Source: a virus (taxonomy: Duplodnaviria > Heunggongvirae > Uroviricota > Caudoviricetes). From it: a DNA stretch of 16,801 nucleotides. The position numbers were made by a program, and so were the translations under genes. Below, in pieces: positions 1-14,859 of the stretch (positions are counted from its first letter, which is position 1; each line of letters begins with the position of its first letter). The DNA lies in IMG/VR virus record IMGVR_UViG_2531839178_000016. The stretch is one strand, 5' to 3'. The notes under the pieces were generated by a model. That model saw only the letters and a program-made list of their open reading frames with translations. It did not search any database and was not told where the DNA came from.

Positions 1-1206
<1,206 letters not shown>

Positions 1207-1419
1207 ATTTTGATATTTTCCAGCACCTCCGCCTTGGAGCTACCGGAGCAGTTGCGCGGGTCATCCGCACCATACAGAGGCGCTGGCATAATGGGAGCCT
1301 TATTTTCAGTAATCAGAAAGGAGGGTAATCGTTCTGGCTGTAACCATAATCATCTGCATGATTCTGGCTTACGTTTTTGCTGCGATTGTCTTTGTCTTTG
1401 AGAGTGGAAACCATATTTG

Positions 1420-1899
1420 CTACAGTTTCTGGTTTCTTTCCTTCAGTTTTTCTTTCAGTGTCTGCCCTGTTTCTGCAATGAATGGAATGCGGATTTCCAT
1501 CTGGTAACTGTCTGCGCCAGTCTTTCTGTTTGTGGTTAATACTTTCTGGAGGACGAGTCCGATTTTCTTTCCGTGAAACTCAGGTGCAACATATTTACTG
1601 ACGGAAACCATATGTTGCGTTAACTGCCCAATTCCTGTGCATCCCATCATGGCGTGAATAATGCTCGCCCCAAATTTATTTTCAGTGCCGTCATTCTTCT
1701 GAACACAAACACTGAGATATTGGATTTTCCGTCCGTCGTCGGATTCTCCAGAAAACTCAATGAATCGGGCACCTTTTTCTGATTGCTTGAGTTCTGCTTC
1801 GGTGATGTTAATGATATGCGCACCCGTTTCGGTAATAAAACCACCTTGTCCGGCGGTCAGTGCTGATTCTTCGTTATAAGTAAAAATCACTTCATCCAT
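1420..1899 (-). CDS. hypothetical phage protein (159 aa), last gene of the exo operon before the IS911 junction
   Basis: ORF start overlaps the exo stop (TAATG) on the same strand. No recognisable family from sequence alone. Confidence 0.5.
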   Translation of the reverse strand: MDEVIFTYNEESALTAGQGGFITETGAHIINITEAELKQSEKGARFIEFSGESDDGRKIQYLSVCVQKNDGTENKFGASIIHAMMGCTGIGQLTQHMVSVSKYVAPEFHGKKIGLVLQKVLTTNRKTGADSYQMEIRIPFIAETGQTLKEKLKERNQKL

Positions 1900-2588
1900 T
1901 AGTTATTAACCCCCCATTGTTCTCCAAATACAAAACCAATTTCCGCCAGTGCTTCGTCCATTTTGTCGATGAACTCCGGCACCATCTCATCAAAACTCGT
2001 CATGTACTTTTCATCCCGCTCGACCACGACATAATGCAGGCCTTCACGCTTCATGCGTGGGTCGTAGTTGGCGAAGTACCAGGCGTCCTTGTCTGTAACC
2101 CACATGCTGAATTGCACCTGGGCCATGTAAGCAGGCTTGATAGCGTCAAAGCCGCCAAGCCGGAACTTCATGAAGTCGCGGGAAGTGAAGGGGCATTTAA
2201 GCTCAAGGCCGTTACCGTCGCTGCATAAACCGTCGGGAGAGCAGGCGGTGCGCATGCTTTCGTCACGAAAAATTATTGGCGTTTCCGAGACGGTAACATC
2301 CGCGATAAATTCGAAGATGGCACGGGCATCATCTTCGTATTGCTTTCCCCATGCGAGCGACTTAGCGTTAACTTCCGGTGCCACGCCGGTACAAACTTCA
2401 GCCAGCAGGGTGTGGAAGTATGAGATTTTTGTATCAGGCCATTTGCTGCCGGAACGTGGCTTTGCTATCACATTGTGAACTTCTGAAGCAGTGATAACAC
2501 CGAGTCTCAGCTTGTGCCATCCATCATCGCCCTGGTCGAGGCTGGTAATATCCACGCCAGTTCGCTGGAGAATAATTTCTGGTGTCAT
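1899..2588 (-). CDS. exo: lambda-type exonuclease (Red-alpha / YqaJ family)
   Basis: 229-aa protein co-linear with recalled lambda Exo (MTP.IILQRTG..., [86 protein letters not shown]). Start overlaps the recT stop (ATGA). Confidence 0.9.
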
Positions 2589-3190
2589 GACACGGCCTCG
2601 CTGCTATTTTCCGTGGTGGCGTGAATTTTCGCTTCCGCCGTGGCCTTGTTTCTGGCAGCTTTCTTTTTGACAAAATCAAGCGTTTTGACAGCTTCTTCCT
2701 GACTGAGATATTCATGTGATGCAATCGTGCGACGGAATGTTTTGGAACATAAGGGAAGCAGGTCATCCCATGTCTTGTTAATTTCGGTGATTGCCTGAGT
2801 GATCTCATTGATAATCTCATCTGATGCGGGAGTGACGTCACGCTCAGGGATGTGATCAGCATTCAGGATGATACCTTCACCGGCCTGAGTGTTCAGGTAG
2901 TCGATAGCTGTATCCAGGCGATCGCGACGGGGCCAGTATTTGCTGGCGCGCTTAACAATGGCTTTTCTGGCCATTTCATCGGGGAAACTATCCCACGGGC
3001 TACTTCCTCCGTTATTTCCGGCTTTGCTGCACGCCCTGATGACCTCGATTTCCCTGTTGCTCATCTCTTCGGTCAGATAGTCGCCTTCGGATGTTTTTAC
3101 GACACAATAACCGCCAATGCGTGCGCCCCTGTCTACGAATGGGTTGTATTTGTGCGTGGGGGCGCAGTCAATACCGTTGGACTCGTAAAT
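2585..3190 (-). pseudogene. recT: recT/bet-type single-strand annealing protein, C-terminal two-thirds (5-prime end removed by IS600 insertion at 3190/3191)
   Basis: The reading frame is open from the IS600 boundary: IYESNGIDCAPTHKYNPFVDRGARIGGYCVVKTSEGDYLTEEMSNREIEVIRACSKAGNNGGSSPWDSFPDEMARKAIVKRASKYWP..., which parallels E. coli RecT (...VTHVYAVARLKDGGTQFEVMTRKQIELVRSLSKAGNNGPW...MAKKTAIRRLFKYLP). The N-terminal part is at 11944..12291. Confidence 0.8.
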
Positions 3191-3254
3191 TGAGGTAGCC
3201 TGAGTTTAACGGACACTCCTTCCTGAAATAGAATGGCATCAGAAGGAGCTAATA

Positions 3255-3517
3255 ATGAGCAGAAAAACCCAACGTTACTCTAAAGAGTTCAAAGCCGAAG
3301 CTGTCAGAACGGTTCTTGAAAATCAACTTTCGATCAGTGAAGGCGCTTCCCGATTATCCCTTCCTGAAGGCACTTTAGGACAATGGGTTACCGCCGCCAG
3401 AAAAGGACTCGGTACTCCTGGTTCCCGCACGGTGGCTGAACTGGAATCTGAAATTCTGCAACTGCGTAAGGCGTTAAATGAAGCTCGCCTTGAGCGAGAT
3501 ATATTAAAAAAAGCAAC
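3255..3517 (+). pseudogene. IS600 orfA, interrupted by IS30 after ...ERDILKKAT
   Basis: MSRKTQRYSKEFKAEAVRTVLENQLSISEGASRLSLPEGTLGQWV... is the IS600 OrfA sequence. The frame reads into the IS30 terminal repeat at 3518. The remaining orfA codons (AYFAQESLKNTR*) resume after IS30 at 4741. Confidence 0.85.
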
Positions 3518-4738
3518 TGTAGATTCAATTGGTCAACGCAACAGTTATGTGAAAACATGGGGTCGCGGAGGTTTTTTGAATGAGACGAACATTTACAGCA
3601 GAGGAAAAAGCCTCTGTTTTTGAACTATGGAAGAACGGAACAGGCTTCAGTGAAATAGCGAATATCCTGGGTTCAAAACCCGGAACGATCTTCACTATGT
3701 TAAGGGATACTGGCGGCATAAAACCCCATGAGCGTAAGCGGGCTGTAGCTCACCTGACACTGTCTGAGCGCGAGGAGATACGAGCTGGTTTGTCAGCCAA
3801 AATGAGCATTCGTGCGATAGCTACTGCGCTGAATCGCAGTCCTTCGACGATCTCACGTGAAGTTCAGCGTAATCGGGGCAGACGCTATTACAAAGCTGTT
3901 GATGCTAATAACCGAGCCAACAGAATGGCGAAAAGGCCAAAACCGTGCTTACTGGATCAAAATTTACCATTGCGAAAGCTTGTTCTGGAAAAGCTGGAGA
4001 TGAAATGGTCTCCAGAGCAAATATCAGGATGGTTAAGGCGAACAAAACCACGTCAAAAAACGCTGCGAATATCACCTGAGACAATTTATAAAACGCTGTA
4101 CTTTCGTAGCCGTGAAGCGCTACACCACCTGAATATACAGCATCTGCGACGGTCGCATAGCCTTCGCCATGGCAGGCGTCATACCCGCAAAGGCGAAAGA
4201 GGTACGATTAACATAGTGAACGGAACACCAATTCACGAACGTTCCCGAAATATCGATAACAGACGCTCTCTGGGGCATTGGGAGGGCGATTTAGTCTCAG
4301 GTACAAAAAACTCTCATATAGCCACACTTGTAGACCGAAAATCACGTTATACGATCATCCTTAGACTCAGGGGCAAAGATTCTGTCTCAGTAAATCAGGC
4401 TCTTACCGACAAATTCCTGAGTTTACCGTCAGAACTCAGAAAATCACTGACATGGGACAGAGGAATGGAACTGGCCAGACATCTAGAATTTACTGTCAGC
4501 ACCGGCGTTAAAGTTTACTTCTGCGATCCTCAGAGTCCTTGGCAGCGGGGAACAAATGAGAACACAAATGGGCTAATTCGGCAGTACTTTCCTAAAAAGA
4601 CATGTCTTGCCCAATATACTCAACATGAACTAGATCTGGTTGCTGCTCAGCTAAACAACAGACCGAGAAAGACACTGAAGTTCAAAACACCGAAAGAGAT
4701 AATTGAAAGGGGTGTTGCATTGACAGATTGAATCTACA
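3518..4738 (+). mobile_element. IS30 (complete, 1221 bp) nested in IS600; flanked by 2-bp duplication AC
   Basis: Terminal repeats TGTAGATTCAATTGGTCAACGC (3518) and GCATTGACAGATTGAATCTACA (ends 4738). AC is present on both flanks (3516..3517 and 4739..4740). Confidence 0.95.
3580..4731 (+). CDS. insI: IS30 transposase (383 aa)
   Basis: Full-length ORF with N-terminal HTH and C-terminal DDE-type catalytic domain, bounded by IS30 inverted repeats. Identical translation to the copy at 13238..14389. Confidence 0.95.
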   Translation: MRRTFTAEEKASVFELWKNGTGFSEIANILGSKPGTIFTMLRDTGGIKPHERKRAVAHLTLSEREEIRAGLSAKMSIRAIATALNRSPSTISREVQRNRGRRYYKAVDANNRANRMAKRPKPCLLDQNLPLRKLVLEKLEMKWSPEQISGWLRRTKPRQKTLRISPETIYKTLYFRSREALHHLNIQHLRRSHSLRHGRRHTRKGERGTINIVNGTPIHERSRNIDNRRSLGHWEGDLVSGTKNSHIATLVDRKSRYTIILRLRGKDSVSVNQALTDKFLSLPSELRKSLTWDRGMELARHLEFTVSTGVKVYFCDPQSPWQRGTNENTNGLIRQYFPKKTCLAQYTQHELDLVAAQLNNRPRKTLKFKTPKEIIERGVALTD

Positions 4739-4815
4739 ACAGCGTATTTTGCACAGGAGTCGCTGAAAAATACGCGTTAATCGAACAATGGCGACAACAA
4801 TTTCCCATTGAAGCG

Positions 4816-5634
4816 ATGTGTCAGGTATTTGGTGTATCCAGGAGCGGTTATTACAACTGGGTACAGCATGAACCCTCAGACAGAAAACAAAGTGATGAGC
4901 GGCTAAAACTGGAGATTAAGGTGGCACATATCCGCACTCGCGAAACATATGGAACCCGGCGGCTCCAGACGGAGCTGGCAGAGAATGGCATCATCGTTGG
5001 TCGTGACCGACTGGCACGTCTTCGTAAGGAGCTAAGGCTACGCTGTAAGCAGAAACGCAAGTTCAGAGCGACTACGAACCCGAACCACAATCTGCCAGTT
5101 GCGCCAAATCTGCTGAACCAGACGTTCGCTCCTACAGCACCAAATCAGGTCTGGGTGGCGGACCTGACGTATGTTGCCACACAGGAGGGATGGTTGTACC
5201 TCGCTGGCATCAAAGATGTTTATACGTGCGAAATTGTCGGCTACGCCATGGGAGAGCGCATGACAAAAGAGCTGACAGGTAAAGCCCTGTTTATGGCGCT
5301 CAGGAGCCAGCGCCCACCTGCCGGGCTAATCCACCACTCTGATCGAGGTTCACAGTACTGCGCATACGATTACCGGGTCATACAGGAGCAGTTTGGTCTG
5401 AAAACATCAATGTCGCGTAAAGGTAACTGTTACGACAACGCTCCGATGGAAAGCTTCTGGGGAACGCTGAAAAATGAGAGCCTGAGCCACTATCGTTTTA
5501 ATAACCGGGATGAAGCCATCTCAGTAATACGGGAATACATTGAGATTTTCTACAATCGTCAGCGTCGTCACTCTCGTCTGGGGAATATCTCCCCGGCAGC
5601 CTTCAGGGAAAAATATCATCAGATGGCTGCTTAA
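4816..5634 (+). CDS. IS600 transposase OrfB frame (DDE integrase); the OrfAB fusion is prevented by the IS30 insertion
   Basis: 272-aa ORF with IS3-family motifs (WVADLTYV, HSDRGSQYCA, GNCYDNAPMESFW). Matches recalled IS600 OrfB. Confidence 0.85.
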   Translation: MCQVFGVSRSGYYNWVQHEPSDRKQSDERLKLEIKVAHIRTRETYGTRRLQTELAENGIIVGRDRLARLRKELRLRCKQKRKFRATTNPNHNLPVAPNLLNQTFAPTAPNQVWVADLTYVATQEGWLYLAGIKDVYTCEIVGYAMGERMTKELTGKALFMALRSQRPPAGLIHHSDRGSQYCAYDYRVIQEQFGLKTSMSRKGNCYDNAPMESFWGTLKNESLSHYRFNNRDEAISVIREYIEIFYNRQRRHSRLGNISPAAFREKYHQMAA

Positions 5635-7136
5635 AAAAAGAACAAATGGTAGTGTCCGCTATTGCCAGTACACCTCATTGACTTGATGAAATTGTGCACT
5701 TCAACCGAGGTTTGCAGCGGCGCGTTACTGAAGCCTTTAGGCCACACCCCGAACTTCTCTTTGTAGGTATGAGCGCACCATCCGTCACTCAGTGGCTTAC
5801 CTGTCGCGTTGCGGTAATTCTGATAGCCCTTGATCTCACTCCACCACCGCTGTTTTTCCTCACGGCTGTATTCGCGTTTCCCTTTGTTTACGCGAGAGAG
5901 TTTTCGATCGCGGTCTGTTGCCACATCATCGCCACCAAGAGGACGAAACCCACATTTGGGACACATGTGTACACCAGCAGGCTTCATGAAGTGGCATTTG
6001 GGGCATTCTCTGGGAAGTTTTTCAGCTTTAACCTCGCCACCGCCAGCAGACGCTTTCATTCCGTCATTTTTGCCCGGCAGTTCGTCATACTCGATATCCT
6101 CGGGGAAACCCAGCCGATGAACCGTGCCAGAATGGTCGAAAATCAACGCACGTTGTTTACCTGGGGCTGTACGTAACGCTCTACCTATGCACTGCAACCA
6201 ACGGATTTCTGATTTTGTCGGACGGGCATAGATCAGGCAGCGAACATCGCTGTCAAATCCCGCAACCAGTACGCCGACGTTGACAATTATTTTGGTCACG
6301 CCCTCTTCAAAACGGCGAATGATGTCCTGTCGTTCATCATGGAGGGTATCTGCCGTCATCACCTCTGCGCCAATACCGGCCTGTAAAAACTCACGGGTAA
6401 CAAAATTCGCATGCGCAACATTCACACAGAAGCAGATCGTCGGCAAATCCTCACCATTCTCAAGCCAGTTGCGAACGATATCGCCAACCAGATCCGAACT
6501 CCCCATGATGGATGCGAGCTGCTCCTCGTTGTAATCCCGTCCAAATACGGTGTTACTGGTTTTTACGCCAGCCAGATCAGGCATTGAGGGGGCAAAAAAC
6601 TCATAATCGCTCAGATCACCACGCTGAATAAGTTCACGAATCGTTGTAGGCTTGATCAGGCATTCGTAGTACTTCCCCATCCAGGCTGCGAACGGGGTAC
6701 CGGAAAGTCCAAGAACCCTGATGTCTCTGTCCCGGATAACCTCAAGTAACGCACGACGCTTCATGTGTGCTTCATCGATGATCAGCAGATCGATGTTGTT
6801 AGGAAACTCACGACGGATCAGCGTGTCGGCACTGGCAATCTGAATCAGTCGTGACGGGTCATAGTTAGGGTGATCACGCCATACAAAACTGATTTCTTCC
6901 CACGGCAAACCGTATTCGGTGAAACGTTCCGCTGTCTGGTTCAGCAGGATGGTGTACGGACAGACAAACATCACTCGCATACCACGTTCAACCATTCCGG
7001 CGGTGACGAATGCTGCAAGACCAGTTTTGCCAGAGCCAGTGGGTGCATACATCAGGTACGTGCGATGCTGTTTCCACTGGTGCCGCAGCTGGTTTAAACC
7101 GCGCTCCTGAGCAAAGTTTGGGATTATTTTCAGCAT
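5631..7136 (-). CDS. SF2 DEAH-box helicase (ResIII-like core plus C-terminal zinc ribbon); native 3-prime end replaced by IS600 sequence from 5677 downward
   Basis: Motif I APTGSGKT, motif II LLIIDEAH, motif III SGTPF, motif VI QCIGRALR, then CPKCHF...CPKCGF zinc ribbon. The last about 15 codons (MRCTGNSGHYHLFFF) lie in the IS600 right end. Start overlaps the stop of the upstream 128-aa gene (ATGCTGA). Confidence 0.85.
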   Translation of the reverse strand: MLKIIPNFAQERGLNQLRHQWKQHRTYLMYAPTGSGKTGLAAFVTAGMVERGMRVMFVCPYTILLNQTAERFTEYGLPWEEISFVWRDHPNYDPSRLIQIASADTLIRREFPNNIDLLIIDEAHMKRRALLEVIRDRDIRVLGLSGTPFAAWMGKYYECLIKPTTIRELIQRGDLSDYEFFAPSMPDLAGVKTSNTVFGRDYNEEQLASIMGSSDLVGDIVRNWLENGEDLPTICFCVNVAHANFVTREFLQAGIGAEVMTADTLHDERQDIIRRFEEGVTKIIVNVGVLVAGFDSDVRCLIYARPTKSEIRWLQCIGRALRTAPGKQRALIFDHSGTVHRLGFPEDIEYDELPGKNDGMKASAGGGEVKAEKLPRECPKCHFMKPAGVHMCPKCGFRPLGGDDVATDRDRKLSRVNKGKREYSREEKQRWWSEIKGYQNYRNATGKPLSDGWCAHTYKEKFGVWPKGFSNAPLQTSVEVHNFIKSMRCTGNSGHYHLFFF

Positions 7137-7516
7137 GACGCCCCCTTGCTACGTGATTTACCCGTTGCCGGGATCACGTCGATCTCATCGCTAACGTATT
7201 GATCCGGATTACGTGAACAGCGCAGAAGCACGATACCAGGAATGCCGTATAGCTTGAGTCTGCGCAGTTTCAGTATTGAACGTGCCCGTGGTGACGCTCT
7301 GTCCACCTCGATCGCGCACCGTTCACCAGATGGGGCAACGACCATGATATCGACGAATCCGCGCTTACCGTTGCCCATATCAACCAGATAATTACGTTCG
7401 ATCGCCAGTCCGGCATCACGCAATTTGGCAGCCAGCACATAATCAAACGTGACCTTGTCTTTTCCGGTGTAGAATTTGTTTCCGAGCAGGCTGATAACCA
7501 CATGTTTGATGAACAT
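7130..7516 (-). CDS. hypothetical protein (128 aa), translationally coupled to the helicase; possible nuclease-like fold (very tentative)
   Basis: ORF with ATG start and coupled stop/start overlap with the helicase. Contains D...E.D spacing (GFVDIMVV...AIEVD) reminiscent of, but not diagnostic for, PD-(D/E)xK nucleases. Confidence 0.5.
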   Translation of the reverse strand: MFIKHVVISLLGNKFYTGKDKVTFDYVLAAKLRDAGLAIERNYLVDMGNGKRGFVDIMVVAPSGERCAIEVDRASPRARSILKLRRLKLYGIPGIVLLRCSRNPDQYVSDEIDVIPATGKSRSKGASC

Positions 7517-7697
7517 GGTACTATTTCCACCGTAATGGTTAGTGTAATAACAATTTCTCCAAAAACCATCTCACCCTATACAGTGATCTACCTAACCTAT
7601 GGAGCTGCCTTCCTCTGGTAGTGCCCTTACAGGCACGGATGTTACAGATCTGCCCCCTTACCCCCTTCTTAGTAAAATTTCAAGCGCAATGGTTTCA

Positions 7698-7714
7698 TGT
7701 GAAATCATTTCACA
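7698..7714. repeat. perfect 17-bp palindrome TGTGAAATCATTTCACA (candidate operator or protein-binding site)
   Basis: Read directly from sequence. Lies in the 220-bp intergenic region between the 93-aa gene and the 128-aa/helicase genes. Confidence 0.6.
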
Positions 7715-7736
7715 AAAATAATCACCTTGATGAGAT

Positions 7737-8018
7737 CTATTCCTTCCGTATCGCTACTGGCGAAAGCATCCAGCCACGGCTGGCTCTCGCGTACTTCTGG
7801 ACATACACCCGTAACCGGGTGTTGGCGCTCCGTCTTGCCCTGTTGCCCTTCCTGAACGATACAGGCTCCTTGTCCCACTCTTCCTGGTACACTCTCGCGT
7901 ACTCTGCTGCAATTTTTACCCTGGTGGTCGGGTCTAGCTGTAACAATTGCTCCTGTATCCAGTCCCGATCAGCATCACAGTACTGATCGGGCATAACCGT
8001 TTTGATTTGCCTGTTCAC
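7737..8018 (-). CDS. hypothetical protein (93 aa) in the cII-equivalent position; GTG start
   Basis: GTG start preceded by GGAGG at 5-nt spacing, 22 bp downstream of the cro-like stop on the same strand. Charged helical-looking sequence, no recognisable family. Confidence 0.5.
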   Translation of the reverse strand: MNRQIKTVMPDQYCDADRDWIQEQLLQLDPTTRVKIAAEYARVYQEEWDKEPVSFRKGNRARRSANTRLRVYVQKYARASRGWMLSPVAIRKE

Positions 8019-8040
8019 TCACACCTCCGATGGAGGGTTA

Positions 8041-8280
8041 TCAGGCTGTTTGCCTTACATGAAGCGGAATACCATCTTCCATGTTTAGGTAGTCATGCGG
8101 GTTTAGTTCATGGGGAGTTACATTCCAGTCTGTAGCTTTTGCCCATTCAATGGCTTTCCGCCCCTGAGGCATGTATCTCCCTGTAATAACCCCACTGACA
8201 AATCCCTGAGAAACTCCAACAATCGCCGCAAAATCGGCTTGTCTGATAGAGCTTTGTCTCAAGTACTCGTCAAGAGTCAT
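8041..8280 (-). CDS. cro: Cro-like small HTH regulator (79 aa)
   Basis: Divergent from cI across a 105-bp region. Size and HTH-like segment (QADFAAIVGVSQGFVSGVITGRYMP) fit Cro/YdaS-type proteins. GGGAGG RBS 6 nt before ATG. Confidence 0.65.
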   Translation of the reverse strand: MTLDEYLRQSSIRQADFAAIVGVSQGFVSGVITGRYMPQGRKAIEWAKATDWNVTPHELNPHDYLNMEDGIPLHVRQTA

Positions 8281-8385
8281 AGAGATCCTCCCATTTCAAT
8301 TTTCCGATATTAGCTTACCTGATTTAAATGTCAATAGGCTAGCTATTTGATAAATATTTGTGTTGCTAATAAAATCGGAGGCACT
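8281..8385. promoter_or_regulatory. cI/cro divergent control region (PR- and PRM-like promoters; operator sites not resolved)
   Basis: Minus strand: -35 TTGACA (8329..8334), 16-bp spacer, -10 TAATAT (8307..8312), driving cro. Plus strand: -35 TTGATA (8347..8352), 17-bp spacer, -10 TAAAAT (8370..8375), giving a nearly leaderless cI transcript. Predicted start sites are about 82 bp apart. Confidence 0.6.
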
Positions 8386-9105
8386 ATGACGAAGAAAATT
8401 ACAATTACTGACAAAGACATCCAGAACGCTGAACGACTGCGCAAAATCTGGGATGAAAAACGGAAACAGCTATCCCTAAGCCAGGAAAAAGCCGCAGATA
8501 TCCTCGGCTTCAAAACGCAGGGGGCTGTTAGTCAGTTATTGAACGCAAAAATTGCGTTAAATACTGAAAATACCCTTAAGTTTGCGGCTTTATTACAGGT
8601 TCCTGCGGAAGAAATTAATCCAGATCTGAGTGATTTGTTACGCAGTATTCGTACCCACACACCGGGAAACAGGCGTAACCTGTTCGAGAAATATTACGAA
8701 TATCCGTTACTCTCCTGCGTACAGGCTGGAGCTTTCTCAATGGATGATTTTTCGTACACCGCAAAGGATGCGATTAAGTGGATCTCCACCACCACAAAAG
8801 CCAGTGACAGGTCGTTCTGGCTGGAGGTCAAGGGGCATTCAATGACCGCGCCGCAGGGTGGTAAACCCAGTTTCCCCGAAGGGATGCTGATACTCGTTGA
8901 CCCTGAGCGGGAGATTGAGGATGGCGATTTTTGCGTGGCCCGAATGAATGGCGATGAATTCACCTTCAAACGATTCATTCGTGAGAGCGGTAAAGCGTAC
9001 CTGGAGCCACTCAACCCACGATTCGACATGATTGAGTGTAACGAAAACTGCCAGTTTGTCGGAAAGGTCATAAAGTCGCAGTGGAATGATGAGACTTTTG
9101 ATTGA
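8386..9105 (+). CDS. cI: CI-type prophage repressor (HTH plus LexA-like S24 autopeptidase domain), 239 aa
   Basis: Co-linear with recalled lambda CI: Ala-Gly cleavage site (CVQAGAFS), catalytic Ser (GHSMTAP) and Lys (FTFKRF), [33 protein letters not shown] at 8386 preceded by GGAG. Confidence 0.9.
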
Positions 9106-9226
9106 ACTCACAGGATGATATCAATAACCTTGCAGGGAGGCTATTTTATTTCCTTTTTCAGCGAAAAATCTCCGAGAACCCTCGCCCAATGCGGGCGGGG
9201 AGCAGTCGCAATCAAGTGAGCCATAA

Positions 9227-9400
9227 ATGAACAAAGACAAATCCTTGACACAACAAGTGGAAGAAATACTTAGCAAGCAAAAAGTTAGCGAGCAAGGAAA
9301 AATGATTCAATCATTAAAGAACATGGGCTTGATCAACAAGCCTGTTTTTACTTTGGCTTATGGACCAGATATTACAACCTGCCAAATGCACCAATAACAA
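9227..9400 (+). CDS. candidate small ORF (58 aa) downstream of cI, ending at the terminator
   Basis: ATG-initiated open frame MNKDKSLTQQVEEILSKQKVSEQGKMIQSLKNMGLINKPVFTLAYGPDITTCQMHQ. Weak RBS. Below the length cutoff of the supplied ORF track. Confidence 0.35.
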
Positions 9401-9426
9401 AACCCGGCCTTGGTGCCGGGTTTTGT
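9399..9426. terminator. bidirectional intrinsic terminator between convergent cI and hicB
   Basis: AAAACCCGGCCTTGGTGCCGGGTTTT: 8-bp GC-rich stem, 6-nt loop, A-run upstream and T-run downstream. Confidence 0.7.
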
Positions 9427-9511
9427 TTGCCTCCTGCTCGCCCCACCATTTACCAGTGCGCCGTAAATTCCCCATTCTTCGGCGGTGAGGATGTCAAAGA
9501 CGAAGGGAACA

Positions 9512-9856
9512 TTAAGCCCCTGTGTGATGGTTGACTTCTTTTTCCAGCGCCTTATTAACAAAGGCGTTCAGTGATAAATCTTCTTCCATCGCCATTTCAG
9601 CGACCCGACGATGCAGTTCTGGATCAAGTCTGACGTTAAACACACCTTTAAACGGGGTATCAGGCTCCTTTCCATCCTCCACACAAGACTGTAAATACAG
9701 CTCAACCGATGTCTTAAACTCCTGTTCCAGTTCAGCTAATGTAGAAGCCTCATAAGTTACCAGGTCTCGAATAAACGCCAGTTTTCCGTACAGGATATTA
9801 TTTTCAAAATCTGGTTCTACTGTACCTAAATATCCTTTATATTTTAGATGATTCAT
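9512..9856 (-). CDS. hicB: HicB-family antitoxin (114 aa)
   Basis: N-terminal HicB fold motifs (YKGYLGTVE...FYGK...IRDLVTYEASTLAELEQEF) and C-terminal ribbon-helix-helix-like tail (FNVRLDPELHRRVAEMAMEEDLSLNAFVNKALE). Start overlaps the hicA stop (ATGA). Confidence 0.8.
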   Translation of the reverse strand: MNHLKYKGYLGTVEPDFENNILYGKLAFIRDLVTYEASTLAELEQEFKTSVELYLQSCVEDGKEPDTPFKGVFNVRLDPELHRRVAEMAMEEDLSLNAFVNKALEKEVNHHTGA

Positions 9857-10107
9857 AATACCCCAGCCTCTTTCAGATTCTGTTTAATCGCTTTCAGCGT
9901 TCCACCTTTAATATAACTTTCTGGATGTGGGCGATGCATTAATATGGTGTGGTTGATTTCAGCATTGAAAAACCGCACTCTTGAGCCCTGCATTTCCTTT
10001 TTGACATATCCCAGAGAGGAAAACAAAACGACCAACTCATCCCATTCAAACGTTTTTTTACTGTTTAAAAACTTTTCCAGTAGCTTATCTGCTTTCCCCA
10101 TACCCAC
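9853..10107 (-). CDS. hicA: HicA-family toxin (mRNA interferase), about 82-84 aa; start at GTG 10107 or ATG 10101
   Basis: C-terminal HicA signature (GSRVRFFNAEINHTILMHRPHPESYIKGGTLKAIKQNLKEAGVL). Toxin-first order with 4-bp overlap onto hicB. Confidence 0.8.
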   Translation of the reverse strand: MGMGKADKLLEKFLNSKKTFEWDELVVLFSSLGYVKKEMQGSRVRFFNAEINHTILMHRPHPESYIKGGTLKAIKQNLKEAGVL

Positions 10108-10136
10108 ATAATCTCATCTTCGCTACATTGCAACTA

Positions 10137-10165
10137 ATTATAGTTACAGGCGATGTTTTTGTCAA
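10137..10165 (-). promoter_or_regulatory. consensus sigma70 promoter for hicAB (-35 TTGACA, 17-bp spacer, -10 TATAAT)
   Basis: Minus strand reads TTGACAAAAACATCGCCTGTAACTATAAT about 30 bp upstream of the hicA start. Confidence 0.65.
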
Positions 10166-10256
10166 AAGCCACCAAGCCCGCTGGGTTCTCTTTGACTGTT
10201 CACTGCTTTTCTTAGTGTTATCAGGGGGTTCCCTCACACCAAATCTAACACAGAGT

Positions 10257-10283
10257 AACCGGCCTCAGCGCCGGTTTTTCTTT
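10257..10283 (+). terminator. orphan intrinsic terminator-like hairpin (plus strand)
   Basis: AACCGGC-CTCAGC-GCCGGTT followed by TTTCTTT. No obvious upstream plus-strand gene. Confidence 0.45.
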
Positions 10284-10730
10284 GCGCATCCTCCATAACT
10301 CACCACCTGCATTATCCTCGCTTATATTTTTTACATAAATAAATTAATCTAAAAATCAATCACATAGATTAAAATTAAATTATTAGTCTTACTATTAACT
10401 GCGATCAGTTGCGCTTATTATATTTTACCCAAGCCAGAAACATCGCGCCCTGACACAGGGCTACATAAATCAGTCGTACGGCGCGACTTAACCCGCCGCA
10501 AAATGCTCTTTAACAATCTGGAGCTTTACAGCGTCAATGACCTGTTTAGACCCCTACACGTAAACGTGCTGTATCATCGGGTGCGATCCGGTCGATGAGA
10601 GAGTATCCCCGCGCGAGAGCGAGAACGGCGTGAGAACGGGCAACACTGGCAGGAAGTTGGCGCTGACCAATACAGGGAATGTTTTGGGGTGCAGGCGGCA
10701 CCGCCAAAGCATTTCCGAGAAAGGACGATA

Positions 10731-10759
10731 TTGACTGCGTGTGATGTCGGGGCTATATT
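10731..10759 (+). promoter_or_regulatory. strong sigma70-type promoter upstream of rha (-35 TTGACT, 17-bp spacer, -10 TATATT)
   Basis: TTGACTGCGTGTGATGTCGGGGCTATATT read directly from the plus strand. Confidence 0.6.
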
Positions 10760-10819
10760 TGGCGAACACCTCATAAAACGGGTGCCGGGATTAGCACCCC
10801 GAAAGTTACTCGAGCGCAT

Positions 10820-10842
10820 AACCGCGCTGAAGCGGTTTTTTT
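10820..10842 (+). terminator. intrinsic terminator inside the rha leader, about 75 nt downstream of the predicted start site
   Basis: AACCGC-GCTGAA-GCGGTT followed by TTTTTTT. Flanked by an outer inverted repeat CGCATA...TATGCG. Confidence 0.6.
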
Positions 10843-11008
10843 ATGCGTAATGCACAGCCACATTCAAATTATGGTGAGGCGTGCGGGGCAGCCGCAAGGC
10901 TGGCCGGGTTCTCGAGTGACCGGTAGTGCTAACCCTGTGCGTCTCACCACCCATGAGATTAGCACCTCTGGTGGTGAGTTAATTAACTTATCACTTGAGG
11001 ATGTCATT

Positions 11009-11647
11009 ATGGCTACTACCCTTTCTCACCCTGACGTAACCATCGAAAATGGTCGCGCCGTCACTACTTCTATTTCGATTGCTGAGTTTTTTGGCAAGCA
11101 GCATCACCATGTTGTTCAGAAAATAGAATCCCTCGAATGCTCTGAGCAATTCTTAACCCGCAACTTTTCGCGGGTTAAATTCGAACACCGAGGCAATACC
11201 TATAACGCCTACCAAATCACCAAAAACGGCTTCGTTTTTCTGGTGATGGGCTTCACCGGCAAAAAAGCAGCTGCATTCAAGGAAGCCTACATTGCTGAAT
11301 TCGATCGCATGGAAAAACAACTATGGGAACAGAAACAACTGGCCCTGTCTTCTCCTGCGATGAATATCAATTTCCCTTTATCGTGGTTTTCAGAGCATCA
11401 CCCCTATGCCACGATGAACTATGTTGATAGAAATACATTGCAGCTTGATACCTCCGTCTTATTCGACATGCCAAGCCCTGCAATGCGCATATTTAATGAA
11501 TTACGTCGTAACGGCTATAACGTCGATGCGGCTGTCGCCGAATTTAACGCCTTCAAGCATCTGACGGAAGAAATGCGCCGTAAATTGCTGGATATTTCCT
11601 GCACATCGGAAAAGTCTTCCCGCTTTGGTTTCAACGTTAATCTTTAA
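11009..11647 (+). CDS. rha: Rha-family phage regulatory protein (212 aa)
   Basis: N-terminal Rha-type region (VTTSISIAEFFGKQHHHVVQKIESLECSEQFLTRNF...YQITKNGFVFLVMGFTGKKAAAFKEAYIAEFDRME). Start ATG at 11009 chosen for GAGG RBS at 8-nt spacing; the longer ORF from 10850 overlaps the structured leader. Confidence 0.75.
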   Translation: MATTLSHPDVTIENGRAVTTSISIAEFFGKQHHHVVQKIESLECSEQFLTRNFSRVKFEHRGNTYNAYQITKNGFVFLVMGFTGKKAAAFKEAYIAEFDRMEKQLWEQKQLALSSPAMNINFPLSWFSEHHPYATMNYVDRNTLQLDTSVLFDMPSPAMRIFNELRRNGYNVDAAVAEFNAFKHLTEEMRRKLLDISCTSEKSSRFGFNVNL

Positions 11648-11655
11648 TTAACCCC

Positions 11656-11678
11656 ATCCCCGATCACATATCGGGGAT
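11656..11678. repeat. 23-bp hairpin palindrome ATCCCCGAT-CACAT-ATCGGGGAT just after rha (weak terminator or binding site)
   Basis: 9-bp perfect stem, 5-nt loop, AT-rich flanks on both sides. The downstream T-run is imperfect. Confidence 0.4.
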
Positions 11679-11717
11679 TAAATTAAATATCTGGATTAAT
11701 TAACCGGAGGATTTGTC

Positions 11718-11783
11718 ATGCTCAAACCTCACTACGGAACCGCATTAGTTTCTCGCGAGGACGTTAAACCCCATTGCTTATGA
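11718..11783 (+). CDS. candidate micro-ORF (21 aa) with strong RBS
   Basis: GGAGG 7 nt upstream of ATG. Stop overlaps the start of the next ORF (ATGA). Confidence 0.3.
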   Translation: MLKPHYGTALVSREDVKPHCL

Positions 11784-11926
11784 GCAGCCTTTTTTTACCC
11801 AAAGAAGCCCAACTGGCACTCACTGGCGAAAAAGCTGAAGAGGCGTACAACGATTATATCTCAGCGATCGCCTATGCTCGGGCGGAAGAAGAATGGGAGA
11901 GAAAATTCTCCCCCTGTCCTTTCTGA
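11780..11926 (+). CDS. candidate small ORF (48 aa) immediately upstream of recT
   Basis: MSSLFLPKEAQLALTGEKAEEAYNDYISAIAYARAEEEWERKFSPCPF. Coupled to the preceding micro-ORF. Occupies the position of gam/kil/cIII-type small genes. Confidence 0.35.
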   Translation: MSSLFLPKEAQLALTGEKAEEAYNDYISAIAYARAEEEWERKFSPCPF

Positions 11927-11943
11927 TTTTCAGGACCAAAAAA

Positions 11944-12291
11944 ATGTTCGATATCGTTGAATTTGTTAAGCAGCAGGAGCGCTTTTTCTGCAAGGCATTA
12001 ACTGAACCGACGCTGACATGGGCGAAGGAAAGTCAGTTTGCAATTCAGCAATTCCAGAAAAATGCCTTTCTGGCTGACACAGCACGGGCAAATCTGCCCA
12101 GCGCACAGAACGCTATCATCAATGTTGCCGCCATCGGCATAACCCTGAACCCGGCCAGCAAGCTGGCGTATCTGGTCCCACGAAAAAAGGCTGTATGCCT
12201 GGATATCAGTTATATGGGGCTTCTGCATCTGGCACAGGTCACAGGAGCCATTCAGTGGGGGCAATGCAAACTTGTTTACGAGAAGGACATT
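11944..12291 (+). pseudogene. recT: recT/bet-type single-strand annealing protein, N-terminal third (3-prime part removed by IS600 at 12291/12292)
   Basis: ...NAIINVAAIGITLNPASKLAYLVPRKKAVCLDISYMGLLHLAQVTGAIQWGQCKLVYEKDI parallels the RecT N-terminal region (SAIVQCSQLGLEPGS...AYLLPFG...GYRGMIDLARRSGQI...VVREGDE). The frame runs into the IS600 end. An alternative start at 11893 is possible. Confidence 0.75.
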
Positions 12292-12334
12292 TGAGGTGTA
12301 CTGGCAATAGCGGACACTACCATTTGTTCTTTTT

Positions 12335-13153
12335 TTAAGCAGCCATCTGATGATATTTTTCCCTGAAGGCTGCCGGGGAGATATTCCCCAGACGAGAGTG
12401 ACGACGCTGACGATTGTAGAAAATCTCAATGTATTCCCGTATTACTGAGATGGCTTCATCCCGGTTATTAAAACGATAGTGGCTCAGGCTCTCATTTTTC
12501 AGCGTTCCCCAGAAGCTTTCCATCGGAGCGTTGTCGTAACAGTTACCTTTACGCGACATTGATGTTTTCAGACCAAACTGCTCCTGTATGACCCGGTAAT
12601 CGTATGCGCAGTACTGTGAACCTCGATCAGAGTGGTGGATTAGCCCGGCAGGTGGGCGCTGGCTCCTGAGCGCCATAAACAGGGCTTTACCTGTCAGCTC
12701 TTTTGTCATGCGCTCTCCCATGGCGTAGCCGACAATTTCGCACGTATAAACATCTTTGATGCCAGCGAGGTACAACCATCCCTCCTGTGTGGCAACATAC
12801 GTCAGGTCCGCCACCCAGACCTGATTTGGTGCTGTAGGAGCGAACGTCTGGTTCAGCAGATTTGGCGCAACTGGCAGATTGTGGTTCGGGTTCGTAGTCG
12901 CTCTGAACTTGCGTTTCTGCTTACAGCGTAGCCTTAGCTCCTTACGAAGACGTGCCAGTCGGTCACGACCAACGATGATGCCATTCTCTGCCAGCTCCGT
13001 CTGGAGCCGCCGGGTTCCATATGTTTCGCGAGTGCGGATATGTGCCACCTTAATCTCCAGTTTTAGCCGCTCATCACTTTGTTTTCTGTCTGAGGGTTCA
13101 TGCTGTACCCAGTTGTAATAACCGCTCCTGGATACACCAAATACCTGACACAT
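12335..13153 (-). CDS. IS600 transposase OrfB frame
   Basis: Translation identical to 4816..5634. Confidence 0.85.
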   Translation of the reverse strand: MCQVFGVSRSGYYNWVQHEPSDRKQSDERLKLEIKVAHIRTRETYGTRRLQTELAENGIIVGRDRLARLRKELRLRCKQKRKFRATTNPNHNLPVAPNLLNQTFAPTAPNQVWVADLTYVATQEGWLYLAGIKDVYTCEIVGYAMGERMTKELTGKALFMALRSQRPPAGLIHHSDRGSQYCAYDYRVIQEQFGLKTSMSRKGNCYDNAPMESFWGTLKNESLSHYRFNNRDEAISVIREYIEIFYNRQRRHSRLGNISPAAFREKYHQMAA

Positions 13154-13230
13154 CGCTTCAATGGGAAATTGTTGTCGCCATTGTTCGATTAACGCGTATT
13201 TTTCAGCGACTCCTGTGCAAAATACGCTGT

Positions 13231-14451
13231 TGTAGATTCAATCTGTCAATGCAACACCCCTTTCAATTATCTCTTTCGGTGTTTTGAACTTCAGTGTCTT
13301 TCTCGGTCTGTTGTTTAGCTGAGCAGCAACCAGATCTAGTTCATGTTGAGTATATTGGGCAAGACATGTCTTTTTAGGAAAGTACTGCCGAATTAGCCCA
13401 TTTGTGTTCTCATTTGTTCCCCGCTGCCAAGGACTCTGAGGATCGCAGAAGTAAACTTTAACGCCGGTGCTGACAGTAAATTCTAGATGTCTGGCCAGTT
13501 CCATTCCTCTGTCCCATGTCAGTGATTTTCTGAGTTCTGACGGTAAACTCAGGAATTTGTCGGTAAGAGCCTGATTTACTGAGACAGAATCTTTGCCCCT
13601 GAGTCTAAGGATGATCGTATAACGTGATTTTCGGTCTACAAGTGTGGCTATATGAGAGTTTTTTGTACCTGAGACTAAATCGCCCTCCCAATGCCCCAGA
13701 GAGCGTCTGTTATCGATATTTCGGGAACGTTCGTGAATTGGTGTTCCGTTCACTATGTTAATCGTACCTCTTTCGCCTTTGCGGGTATGACGCCTGCCAT
13801 GGCGAAGGCTATGCGACCGTCGCAGATGCTGTATATTCAGGTGGTGTAGCGCTTCACGGCTACGAAAGTACAGCGTTTTATAAATTGTCTCAGGTGATAT
13901 TCGCAGCGTTTTTTGACGTGGTTTTGTTCGCCTTAACCATCCTGATATTTGCTCTGGAGACCATTTCATCTCCAGCTTTTCCAGAACAAGCTTTCGCAAT
14001 GGTAAATTTTGATCCAGTAAGCACGGTTTCGGCCTTTTCGCCATTCTGTTGGCTCGGTTATTAGCATCAACAGCTTTGTAATAGCGTCTGCCCCGATTAC
14101 GCTGAACTTCACGTGAGATCGTCGAAGGACTGCGATTCAGCGCAGTAGCTATCGCACGAATGCTCATTTTGGCTGACAAACCAGCTCGTATCTCCTCGCG
14201 CTCAGACAGTGTCAGGTGAGCTACAGCCCGCTTACGCTCATGGGGTTTTATGCCGCCAGTATCCCTTAACATAGTGAAGATCGTTCCGGGTTTTGAACCC
14301 AGGATATTCGCTATTTCACTGAAGCCTGTTCCGTTCTTCCATAGTTCAAAAACAGAGGCTTTTTCCTCTGCTGTAAATGTTCGTCTCATTCAAAAAACCT
14401 CCGCGACCCCATGTTTTCACATAACTGTTGCGTTGACCAATTGAATCTACA
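13231..14451 (-). mobile_element. IS30 (complete, 1221 bp) nested in IS600 copy 2
   Basis: Same terminal repeats as 3518..4738. Same right-hand junction sequence (ACAGCGTATT) as copy 1. Confidence 0.95.
13238..14389 (-). CDS. insI: IS30 transposase (383 aa)
   Basis: Translation identical to 3580..4731. Confidence 0.95.
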   Translation of the reverse strand: MRRTFTAEEKASVFELWKNGTGFSEIANILGSKPGTIFTMLRDTGGIKPHERKRAVAHLTLSEREEIRAGLSAKMSIRAIATALNRSPSTISREVQRNRGRRYYKAVDANNRANRMAKRPKPCLLDQNLPLRKLVLEKLEMKWSPEQISGWLRRTKPRQKTLRISPETIYKTLYFRSREALHHLNIQHLRRSHSLRHGRRHTRKGERGTINIVNGTPIHERSRNIDNRRSLGHWEGDLVSGTKNSHIATLVDRKSRYTIILRLRGKDSVSVNQALTDKFLSLPSELRKSLTWDRGMELARHLEFTVSTGVKVYFCDPQSPWQRGTNENTNGLIRQYFPKKTCLAQYTQHELDLVAAQLNNRPRKTLKFKTPKEIIERGVALTD

Positions 14452-14659
14452 GTTGCAGAATTTCAGATTCCAGTTCAGCCACCGTGCGGGAACCAGGAGT
14501 ACCGAGTCCTTTTCTGGCGGCGGTAACCCATTGTCCTAAAGTGCCTTCAGGAAGGGATAATCGGGAAGCGCCTTCACTGATCGAAAGTTGATTTTCAAGA
14601 ACCGTTCTGACAGCTTCGGCTTTGAACTCTTTAGAGTAACGTTGGGTTTTTCTGCTCAT
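14452..14659 (-). pseudogene. IS600 orfA fragment, shortened by a 55-bp deletion next to the IS30 IRL
   Basis: OrfA reads MSRKTQ...ELESEILQL and then meets IS30. Copy 1 has a further 18 codons (RKALNEARLERDILKKAT) before IS30. Confidence 0.8.
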
Positions 14660-14859
14660 TATTAGCTCCTTCTGATGCCATTCTATTTCAGGAAGGAGTG
14701 TCCGTTAAACTCAGGCTACCTCAAAGGACCGAACAAACGAAACAGCAATGAGACCGTTGCGAAAAGCGACAATAGACAAATTCCCTGAATATATCGACCC
14801 GCGCCTGCGTAATTACCGCTCACGCTATGGCGCTATCAGTAATGACTGAGGAATTTACC

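Follow-up and report, generated by a model that had tools for sequence, protein, structure and literature searches.

IS30 is an insertion sequence (IS) that duplicates 2 bp of its target, uses hot spots and, by way of joined-end junctions, makes adjacent deletions and inversions (PMC9333248). In Escherichia coli K-12, a copy of this element (IS30A) interrupts IS911 in the 6-min region (PMC9333248), while IS600 is one of the five IS that have expanded in all Shigella species (PMC7373316). Among the known systems closest to the structure examined here is an IS600 copy with a nested IS30 in the fec/KpLE2-type island of E. coli, and related rearrangements include the IS-mediated inversions of Shigella, slipped-strand deletions between short repeats and the adjacent deletions of IS30 itself.

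Here, we analyzed a 16,801-nucleotide stretch of Caudoviricetes DNA (IMG/VR record IMGVR_UViG_2531839178_000016; hereafter the window), which corresponds to the draft contig AKNA01000038.1 and ends in repeats. In the window, two facing IS600 copies, each with an IS30 inside it, are separated by 6.6 kb of decayed prophage. The account that we favor, with a probability of roughly 0.7, is that the two nested elements are non-autonomous, that recombination between IS600 copies rearranged a prophage at its recT gene, and that one of the two composites (copy 2) lost 55 bp by slippage.

Architecture of the two IS600::IS30 composites

An earlier note on this DNA, made from its letters alone, described two inverted IS600 copies, each with a complete IS30, and both a repeat search of the window and a direct comparison bear this out. 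The inverted-repeat arms lie at 3513-5677/12292-14456 (2165 nt) and at 3190-3464/14450-14724 (275 nt). Since these arms overlap by 7 nt in copy 2 and stand 48 nt apart in copy 1, copy 2 lacks 55 bp. The pairwise alignment proposed in the note upheld its model for all but one base: once 3465-3519 are taken out of copy 1 (3191-5677), it is identical to copy 2 (12292-14723) in reverse complement, apart from an A at 3939 that is a G at 14030 in element orientation (IS30 nt 422). The copies are thus 99.96% identical over 2.4 kb, i.e. not strictly identical, and a chance match is irrelevant. Each allele of this single-nucleotide polymorphism (SNP) recurs in other strains, which shows the variation to be genuine. 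The right junction, TCTACA/ACAGCGTATT, is read in both copies, and the dinucleotide AC flanks IS30 on each side in both of them (3516-3517 and 4739-4740 in copy 1), in agreement with the previously reported identity of site, junction and duplication.

Both IS30 copies are 1221 bp long with 26-bp imperfect terminal inverted repeats, and the window IS30 differs from the K-12 copy (L001) at 2 of 1221 nt. Its open reading frame (ORF) at 3580-4731 encodes a DDE transposase that matches NF033563 at 276 bits (cut-off 80), as well as PF13936 and PF00665, and the 2-bp target duplication is evident from intact IS600, which has one AC at that point. Removing IS30 together with one AC rebuilds an IS600 of 1264 bp with TG...CA ends (TGAGGTAGCC to GTACACCTCA) that is 100% identical to the intact IS600 L044 (CP026836.1). 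The rebuilt element has an orfA at nt 65-367 (100 amino acids [aa]), an A7G motif at nt 316-323 and an orfB frame (-1) that is open from 304 to 1218; the 0/-1 frames and the A6G-type slippery motif of the IS3 family are therefore in place, with a profile match to NF033516 of 335 bits. The OrfB encoded by intact IS600 copies is identical to the window OrfB. The right junction of copy 1 further matches at 100% a locus annotated in RefSeq as 'IS3-like element IS600 family' plus 'IS30'. Profile matches, Pfam and reconstruction thus bear out the element identities and the nesting. We treat these as direct observations, together with the junctions, the recT target site in two halves and the repeat that bounds the deletion.

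IS30 is inserted after IS600 nt 327, 4 nt past the A7G motif, and splits orfA from orfB. The earlier statement that IS30 disrupts orfA oversimplifies this arrangement. Because of the separation, the composite cannot make the IS600 transposase OrfAB, while its IS600 ends are intact.

A split target site reveals past rearrangement of the prophage

The 3-bp sequences flanking the two composites, in element orientation, are aat (left) and ttg (right) for copy 1, and ctt (left) and aat (right) for copy 2. Intact IS600 copies elsewhere are flanked by 3-bp duplications (GTC, CAG, TTT, ATG and GGG), and in the window such a duplication, AAT, is found only across the composites, between the copy 1 left flank and the copy 2 right flank. 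In three IS-free prophages (L002, L003 and L004), window 11771-12292 is directly followed, within recT, by the reverse complement of 3190-1330. When these two flanks are fused and one AAT is dropped, the result is the exact sequence of L002 and L004, GAAGGAC-ATT-TACGAGTCC, and the IS-free prophages carry a single ATT (GAAGGAC-ATT-TACGAG). Since the flanks rejoin as an IS-free recT, the left junction of copy 1 and the right junction of copy 2 derive from one insertion that was split by later recombination, and recombination between IS600 copies has thus already rearranged the region. At the other two junctions, the right end of copy 1 abuts a helicase gene without about 20 of its codons, and the left end of copy 2 abuts the region upstream of the DUF2737/Ea22 genes.

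We propose that one IS600, with or without IS30 at the time, inserted into recT and duplicated AAT. Homologous recombination of this copy with at least one or two others, proposed to have been located at the 3' end of the helicase gene and at the point upstream of the DUF2737/Ea22 genes, would then have rearranged the early region and left the recT halves pointing away from each other, one outside copy 1 and the other inside copy 2. All related assemblies, among them the megabase-scale CP027027.1, PSSP01000001.1 and UYIS01000022.1, share these four IS600 flanks and their arrangement, indicating that the rearrangement is ancestral to the lineage. The earlier suggestion that the inverted repeat can invert the prophage early region is thus well founded, in that the substrate is present and the split recT site attests to a past rearrangement.

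Two observations speak against the simplest form of this account. The ctt and ttg flanks share no duplication and are not contiguous in relatives, and their partner junctions were not found; moreover, no ongoing flipping of the 6.6-kb segment was seen, as all long related assemblies have it in one orientation. Because ctt and ttg neither match nor adjoin in relatives, two insertions followed by one inversion were rejected, and the history requires a minimum of one additional IS600 site and one additional event, with IS copies outside the window. Two models with three IS copies fit the window, namely two successive inversions or the excision of a circle followed by its re-integration; the order and number of events are what we infer from the flanks. 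No site-specific invertase gene lies in or beside the segment, which in this respect differs from programmed invertible segments.

A 55-bp deletion between GCAACTG repeats in copy 2

Direct comparison confirmed that 55 bp of orfA are missing from copy 2 beside the left end of IS30. The earlier note had placed the repeat GCAACTG at the bounds of this deletion. The repeat is indeed at the end points, but at 3458-3464 and 3513-3519 rather than at 3465-3471 and 3514-3520. As is characteristic of slippage-type events, GCAACTG is found at both end points and one repeat is kept in copy 2 (14450-14456), whereas a 7-bp match at both end points of a random deletion has a chance expectation of about 6e-5. 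The second GCAACTG would itself have arisen from the insertion of IS30, and copy 2 would later have lost 55 bp by slipped-strand (RecA-independent) deletion between the repeats, which are 55 bp apart. Slippage between these 7-bp repeats best explains the deletion, the mechanism being read from the sequence.

A probe for the deleted left-end junction was compared with 5426 complete E. coli genomes, where the top matches were all two-piece, spanning 295 nt, with no one-piece match, and exact scans of genome, metagenome and viral contig collections gave no match to the deleted junction. Since the undeleted form is general in E. coli, the deletion is secondary, i.e. both derived and rare. For the truncated OrfA' of 70 aa, 208 blocks are on record, but 9 of the 10 places shown have it as a partial gene at a contig end, and these records were not counted as deleted junctions. 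Draft contigs from different chromosomal loci (L006-L014), chosen because their partial product equals the 70-aa sequence or nearly so, break off exactly at GCAACTG(C), after 273-275 nt of IS600. A read set of independent origin (Logan SRR11949396, L005) shows IS600 broken at the same base as in copy 2 but joined to the other end of IS30; in both its flank and its IS600 allele, this sequence agrees with the composite of opposite orientation at the O104:H4 locus. As both ends of IS30 start with TG, the same repeat is created in both orientations of the composite, and the 55-bp deletion has probably recurred.

Some of the evidence weighs against slippage as the agent. An adjacent deletion driven by IS30 would leave the very junction that slippage predicts; the break point is similar to the core of the primary IS30 target (GCAAC-T-GCGTA versus GCAAC-A-GCGTA); and in the sister strain L016 the same IS600 copy is undeleted with its IS30 reversed, which neither simple slippage nor homologous recombination explains. 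It is conceivable, though on balance unlikely, that the IS30 transposase made the deletion, with an active joined-ends junction beside the resident IS30 attacking a secondary target 55 bp upstream, GCA[AC]TGCG, and removing the DNA in between. Junctions of joined ends are known to yield adjacent deletions and inversions (PMC9333248), and the GCA-AC-xGCGTA pattern is common to the break point and the primary site. In line with such an origin, the same break point is joined to either end of IS30 in two unrelated contexts, and no other spot varies as much between sister strains as this IS30 copy, which is reversed in L016, duplicated in part in L015 and L018, and provided with an IS911-like flank in L020. 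However, the exact 7-bp repeat is predicted by slippage and is not required by a transposase, and the secondary site, GCAACTGCG, agrees with the hot spot at only 13/22 positions over 22 nt, no better than one other position in IS600. GCA[AC]TGCG was also rejected as a secondary IS30 hot spot, since no insertion there with its own right junction was found in the 5426 E. coli genomes. Slippage between the GCAACTG repeats is retained as the preferred reading of the deletion.

Two further observations concern this part of IS600. The sequence around the break point (window 3452-3471, AATTCTGCAACTGCGTA) resembles the junction between the right end of IS30 and IS600 (4728-4750, GAATCTACAACAGCGTA), and because of this likeness a 46-nt probe for a hypothetical insertion cross-matched intact IS600. 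An IS600 in CP026836.1 (L041) lacks 18 bp (AAAAAAGCAACAGCGTAT) at nt ~317-334, so that the frameshift motif and the IS30 target are gone; this deletion is bounded by TATT repeats and could be a scar of IS30 loss or plain slippage.

Spread of the composite and re-use of the IS30 site

With 240-nt probes across each junction, the junction between the right end of IS30 and IS600 was found in 1071 of the E. coli genomes, many of them 100% identical and on both chromosomes and plasmids, and the junction between IS600 and the left end of IS30 in 1276, including K-12 MG1655 beside the fec operon. The usual contexts are the fec island, the wzi-galF region and large plasmids, and some genomes carry the composite in more than one copy. 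In K-12, the IS30 beside fecE (L001) has an IS600 orfA' at its left-end side and an inverted IS911-like orfA' fragment at its right-end side, the kind of hybrid expected from recombination between IS30 copies in two host elements. A scan of viral contigs detected the right junction in 13 prophage stretches, among which the full 2487-bp composites are only 2-4 bases from copy 1. Full composites occur at other sites with perfect 3-bp duplications, GTA (L049), TAT (L055) and TCC (L057), and one in E. coli M217 (L026) is flanked by a GAC duplication. A scan of species-representative genomes gave no match to the right-junction pattern. The survey for composites with the same junction that the note had called for thus returns an old structure, to judge from these sequences, that is widespread in E. 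coli and Shigella, already annotated and not new; it is ordinary IS biology, and nothing suggests a new mechanism.

These data bear on whether a pre-formed composite was duplicated, as the earlier note had deduced from the identical junctions. The junctions are the same, but the deduction is insecure, since IS30 re-uses that very dinucleotide. In 327 of the E. coli genomes, IS30 occupies the same AC in the opposite orientation, for instance at porin-hchA in O104:H4. The sister strain L016 (PSSP01000001.1) has an opposite-orientation IS30 (L016 2086-3306, compared with window 13231-14451) in the IS600 copy that corresponds to copy 2. Homologous recombination within IS30 leaves the left end with its own flank in every case and was therefore ruled out as the source of this reversed junction, which must have come from gene conversion, from the action of a transposase or from an insertion of its own. 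An equivalent site in the IS911/ISEc52-like element, just past its A6G motif and with AC on both sides (AAAAAAGGCTAC/IS30/ACCGCG), is occupied in 1029 E. coli genomes and, in the window, by a third, partial IS30 at 1-291. Finally, an orthologous IS600 insertion (TTT duplication, 300-nt flanks 100% identical) is intact in CP026836.1 and a composite in two other genomes. Given this use of a hot spot in both orientations, at the IS911-like site and at a locus with and without IS30, an identical junction is no proof that a unit was duplicated. The target in IS600 has only a general A-rich/GC core/T-rich likeness to the IS30 hot-spot region of lambda.

Further observations were made on the same sites. 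Close strains, with L015, L017, L018, L020 and L021 compared in addition to L016 and the window, have IS30 in either orientation at one dinucleotide of one IS600 copy, as they do within the IS911-like element. Some IS30 copies are hybrids, with a left flank of the IS911-like kind and a right flank from IS600. The TTT insertion (L042 versus L045 and L052) is located beside prophage late-regulation genes and reflects in-situ gain or loss of IS30.

The composite may have spread by three routes: movement as a unit by the IS600 transposase of other copies, re-use by IS30 of the same hot spot in resident IS600 copies, or gene conversion between IS600 copies. The proposal that the composite moved in trans is plausible, as composites flanked by 3-bp duplications are found at other sites and the expansion of IS600 in Shigella makes a transposase available in trans, although IS30 may have arrived after IS600. 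As expected of a composite that moves as a whole, IS600 ends and a 3-bp duplication delimit the unit at several sites, at any of which IS30 may nonetheless have come after IS600. That IS30 entered two resident IS600 copies separately, at a hot spot precise to the nucleotide, or reached them by gene conversion, with no duplication of a composite, is a serious contender to which we give somewhat less than an even chance. Apart from the occupied sites described above (the same AC in the opposite orientation in the 327 genomes and L016, the IS911-like position in 1029 genomes and the third window IS30, and the TTT-flanked IS600 with and without IS30), the IS600 backbone of the window matches the intact Shigella copy L044, whereas the E. 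coli composites have other bases at nt 169, 217 and 667, as separate entry would predict. Separate entry is less easily reconciled with the IMG/VR prophage scan, in which all but one of 14 right junctions (13 loci, some of them on the same contig) are in the canonical orientation, with at least six canonical junctions in contigs of one IMG genome identifier (chance ~0.03 without an orientation preference), or with composites at different sites that are 2-4 bases apart and have intact IS600 ends and 3-bp duplications, which fits unit transposition. A rare IS600 allele and the IS30 base C47 are, moreover, common to both window copies. The two window copies are compatible with either unit transposition or in-situ gain of IS30.

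A broader and more speculative proposal, which we consider doubtful and a shade less probable than a transposase-made deletion, is that, in IS3-family elements (IS600 and an IS911-like element), IS30 has a nucleotide-precise hot spot just past the A6G motif and can occupy it in either orientation; the opposite IS30 orientations at a single IS600 copy in sister strains and the recurrent deletion would then be signs of ongoing remodeling by IS30 and not of passive recombination. If such a precise hot spot exists, orfA would be uncoupled from orfB repeatedly, and IS3-family elements would become non-autonomous and OrfA-only while still being mobilizable.

Related assemblies and the quality of the draft contig

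At most 37% of the window is covered by any one complete E. coli genome. IpaH-type neighbors are present in the related records, namely CP027027.1, PSSP01000001.1, UYIS01000022.1, AAMJ02000007.1, AFFZ01000056.1 and AMJQ01000062.1; from their accession prefixes, we take them to be Shigella dysenteriae/boydii-type genomes, and on the same grounds the window, too, would come from a Shigella-type genome. Three contigs (L022-L024) hold only the inner 6.6 kb, and short-read assemblies break exactly at the IS600 ends, so the assembly problem foreseen for this repeat is real.

The window is itself an old draft, which also detracts from the favored account: single reads cannot span 2.4 kb, and the assignment of the deletion and the SNP to one copy rests on the assembler. 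The deletion, the SNP or their assignment to copy 2 could hence be artefacts of an unspanned 2.4-kb repeat, an explanation in keeping with a window that is a whole 16.8-kb draft contig with repeat ends, with the presence of the deletion at this copy in no other assembly of the lineage, and with the odd one-base 'hybrid' terminal repeat of the third IS30, which could be a mixed consensus. We nevertheless regard an artefact as very improbable, because the deleted junction is 274 nt from unique flanking DNA and within the reach of a single read, assemblers do not join reads on an overlap of only 7 bp, the independent read set L005 also has a related deleted junction, and each SNP allele is found in other strains.

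Other features of the window

The coordinates of all features are given in Table 1. Parts of at least five IS copies of four kinds lie in the window. The third IS30 has a 27-nt terminal repeat at 265-291 (TGTAGATTCAATCTGGTCAACGCAACA) that reads as the left-end repeat with one extra C, or equally as right-end-type outer bases on left-end-type inner bases, and that is in no other assembly; it may stem from a true indel or recombination event, or else from a mixed consensus where the contig ends. The helicase ORF has lost about 20 native codons, and the resulting 501-aa helicase::IS600 fusion marks the lineage, being present in 13 contigs including the window. With recT split, the helicase truncated and the early-left operon scrambled, the prophage is disabled, and no new biological function is implied.

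Table 1. Features of the window and their coordinates
Feature	Position	Strand	Basis
Third IS30, left-end portion cut by the contig end, within an IS911/ISEc52-like element	1..291	-	
IS911/ISEc52-like IS3-family fragment flanking the third IS30 (orfB ORF 360-1199)	292..1203	+	
Prophage segment, inverted relative to the inner segment, including a 159-aa ORF	1330..3190	-	
Exonuclease	1899-2588	-	
recT, 3' part	2585-3064	-	
AAT, half of the 3-bp IS600 target duplication in prophage recT, left-end side	3188..3190	+	
Composite copy 1, IS600 (1264 bp) with IS30, 2487 bp in total	3191..5677	+	Repeat comparison, junction reading
IS600 nt 1-327, left end TGAGGTAGCC, orfA'	3191..3517	+	PF01527
orfA' of copy 1, reading on into IS30, 122 aa	3255-3623	+	
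GCAACTG, upstream repeat, left end point of the 55-bp deletion	3458..3464	+	
AAAAAAAG, slippery motif of the IS600 orfA/orfB -1 frameshift, IS30 4 nt downstream	3506..3513	+	Reading frames
GCAACTG, downstream repeat: GCAAC of IS600 and TG, IS30 bases 1-2	3513..3519	+	
IS30, 1221 bp, ends TGTAGATTCAATTGGTCAACGCAACA and TGTTGCATTGACAGATTGAATCTACA	3518..4738	+	Junction reading, NF033563
IS30 transposase ORF of copy 1, 383 aa	3580-4731	+	NF033563, 276 bits
Single substitution between copies (A; G in copy 2 at 14030)	3939	+	
IS600 nt 328-1264, right end GTACACCTCA	4741..5677	+	NF033516, 335 bits
orfB ORF of copy 1	4816-5634	+	
Helicase ORF, 3' end replaced by IS600, stop codon inside the IS600 right end	5631-7136	-	
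Segment between the copies, 6614 bp: helicase, cro/cI-like, hicAB, rha, kil/gam-like, recT 5' part	5678..12291	.	
hicA/hicB toxin-antitoxin pair, prophage immunity region between the composites	9512-10107	-	
recT, 5' part	11893-12291		
AAT (ATT on the + strand), other half of the duplication, now beside the copy 2 right end	12289..12291	-	
Composite copy 2, 2432 bp, without 55 bp of orfA beside the IS30 left end	12292..14723	-	
IS30 of copy 2, 1221 bp	13231..14451	-	
Truncated orfA' of copy 2, 70 aa, TAG stop contributed by the IS30 end	14447-14659	-	
IS600 nt 1-272 of copy 2	14452..14723	-	
Early-left prophage genes (Ea22/DUF551-type) flanking the left end of copy 2, oriented as the inner segment	14724..15761	+	
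Further IS3-family element at the contig end, ~94% identical to an IS3-family copy in L002	15762..16801	-	

Implications and comparison with known systems

Beyond the first reading of this DNA, our analysis adds a past rearrangement through these very copies, a re-used IS30 hot spot and an apparent recurrence of the deletion. Its main value is caution in interpretation: identical nested-IS junctions are no proof of common descent if the inner element has a precise hot spot, and since the IS30 site is re-used in this way, the argument from junctions to duplication is undermined. Split target duplications that are checked against IS-free relatives offer a simple readout of past rearrangements, and 2.4-kb inverted repeats of this kind fragment short-read assemblies of Shigella prophages.

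Among the known systems, the fec/KpLE2-type island composite of E. coli, which is complete in many strains and truncated in K-12, has IS30 in the same position and orientation, and its junctions are 99-100% identical to those of the window over the 240-nt probes. It differs at IS600 nt 169, 217 and 667, at IS30 nt 47 and in its genomic site, and the window has two inverted copies, one of them with the 55-bp deletion. In the IS911/IS30A arrangement of K-12, IS30 is likewise nested in an IS3-family element, as is the third IS30 of the window in its IS911/ISEc52-like host; the host element differs from that of the composites.

The rearrangement resembles the IS-mediated inversions of Shigella, in which recombination between inverted IS600 copies puts the halves of a target duplication on different copies, but only one of the two duplication pairs expected from a simple two-copy inversion is present, and there is no sign of ongoing switching. 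With regard to the deletion, one repeat and the intervening DNA are lost (7-bp repeats, 55 bp apart), as in slipped-strand deletion, although here one of the repeats is a hybrid of IS600 and terminal IS30 bases and exists only after the insertion of IS30. As in the adjacent deletions made by joined IS30 repeats, the deletion abuts an intact IS30 end; in contrast to them, the window has no joined-end junction or tandem IS30, and the microhomology at its end points is not typical of that mechanism.

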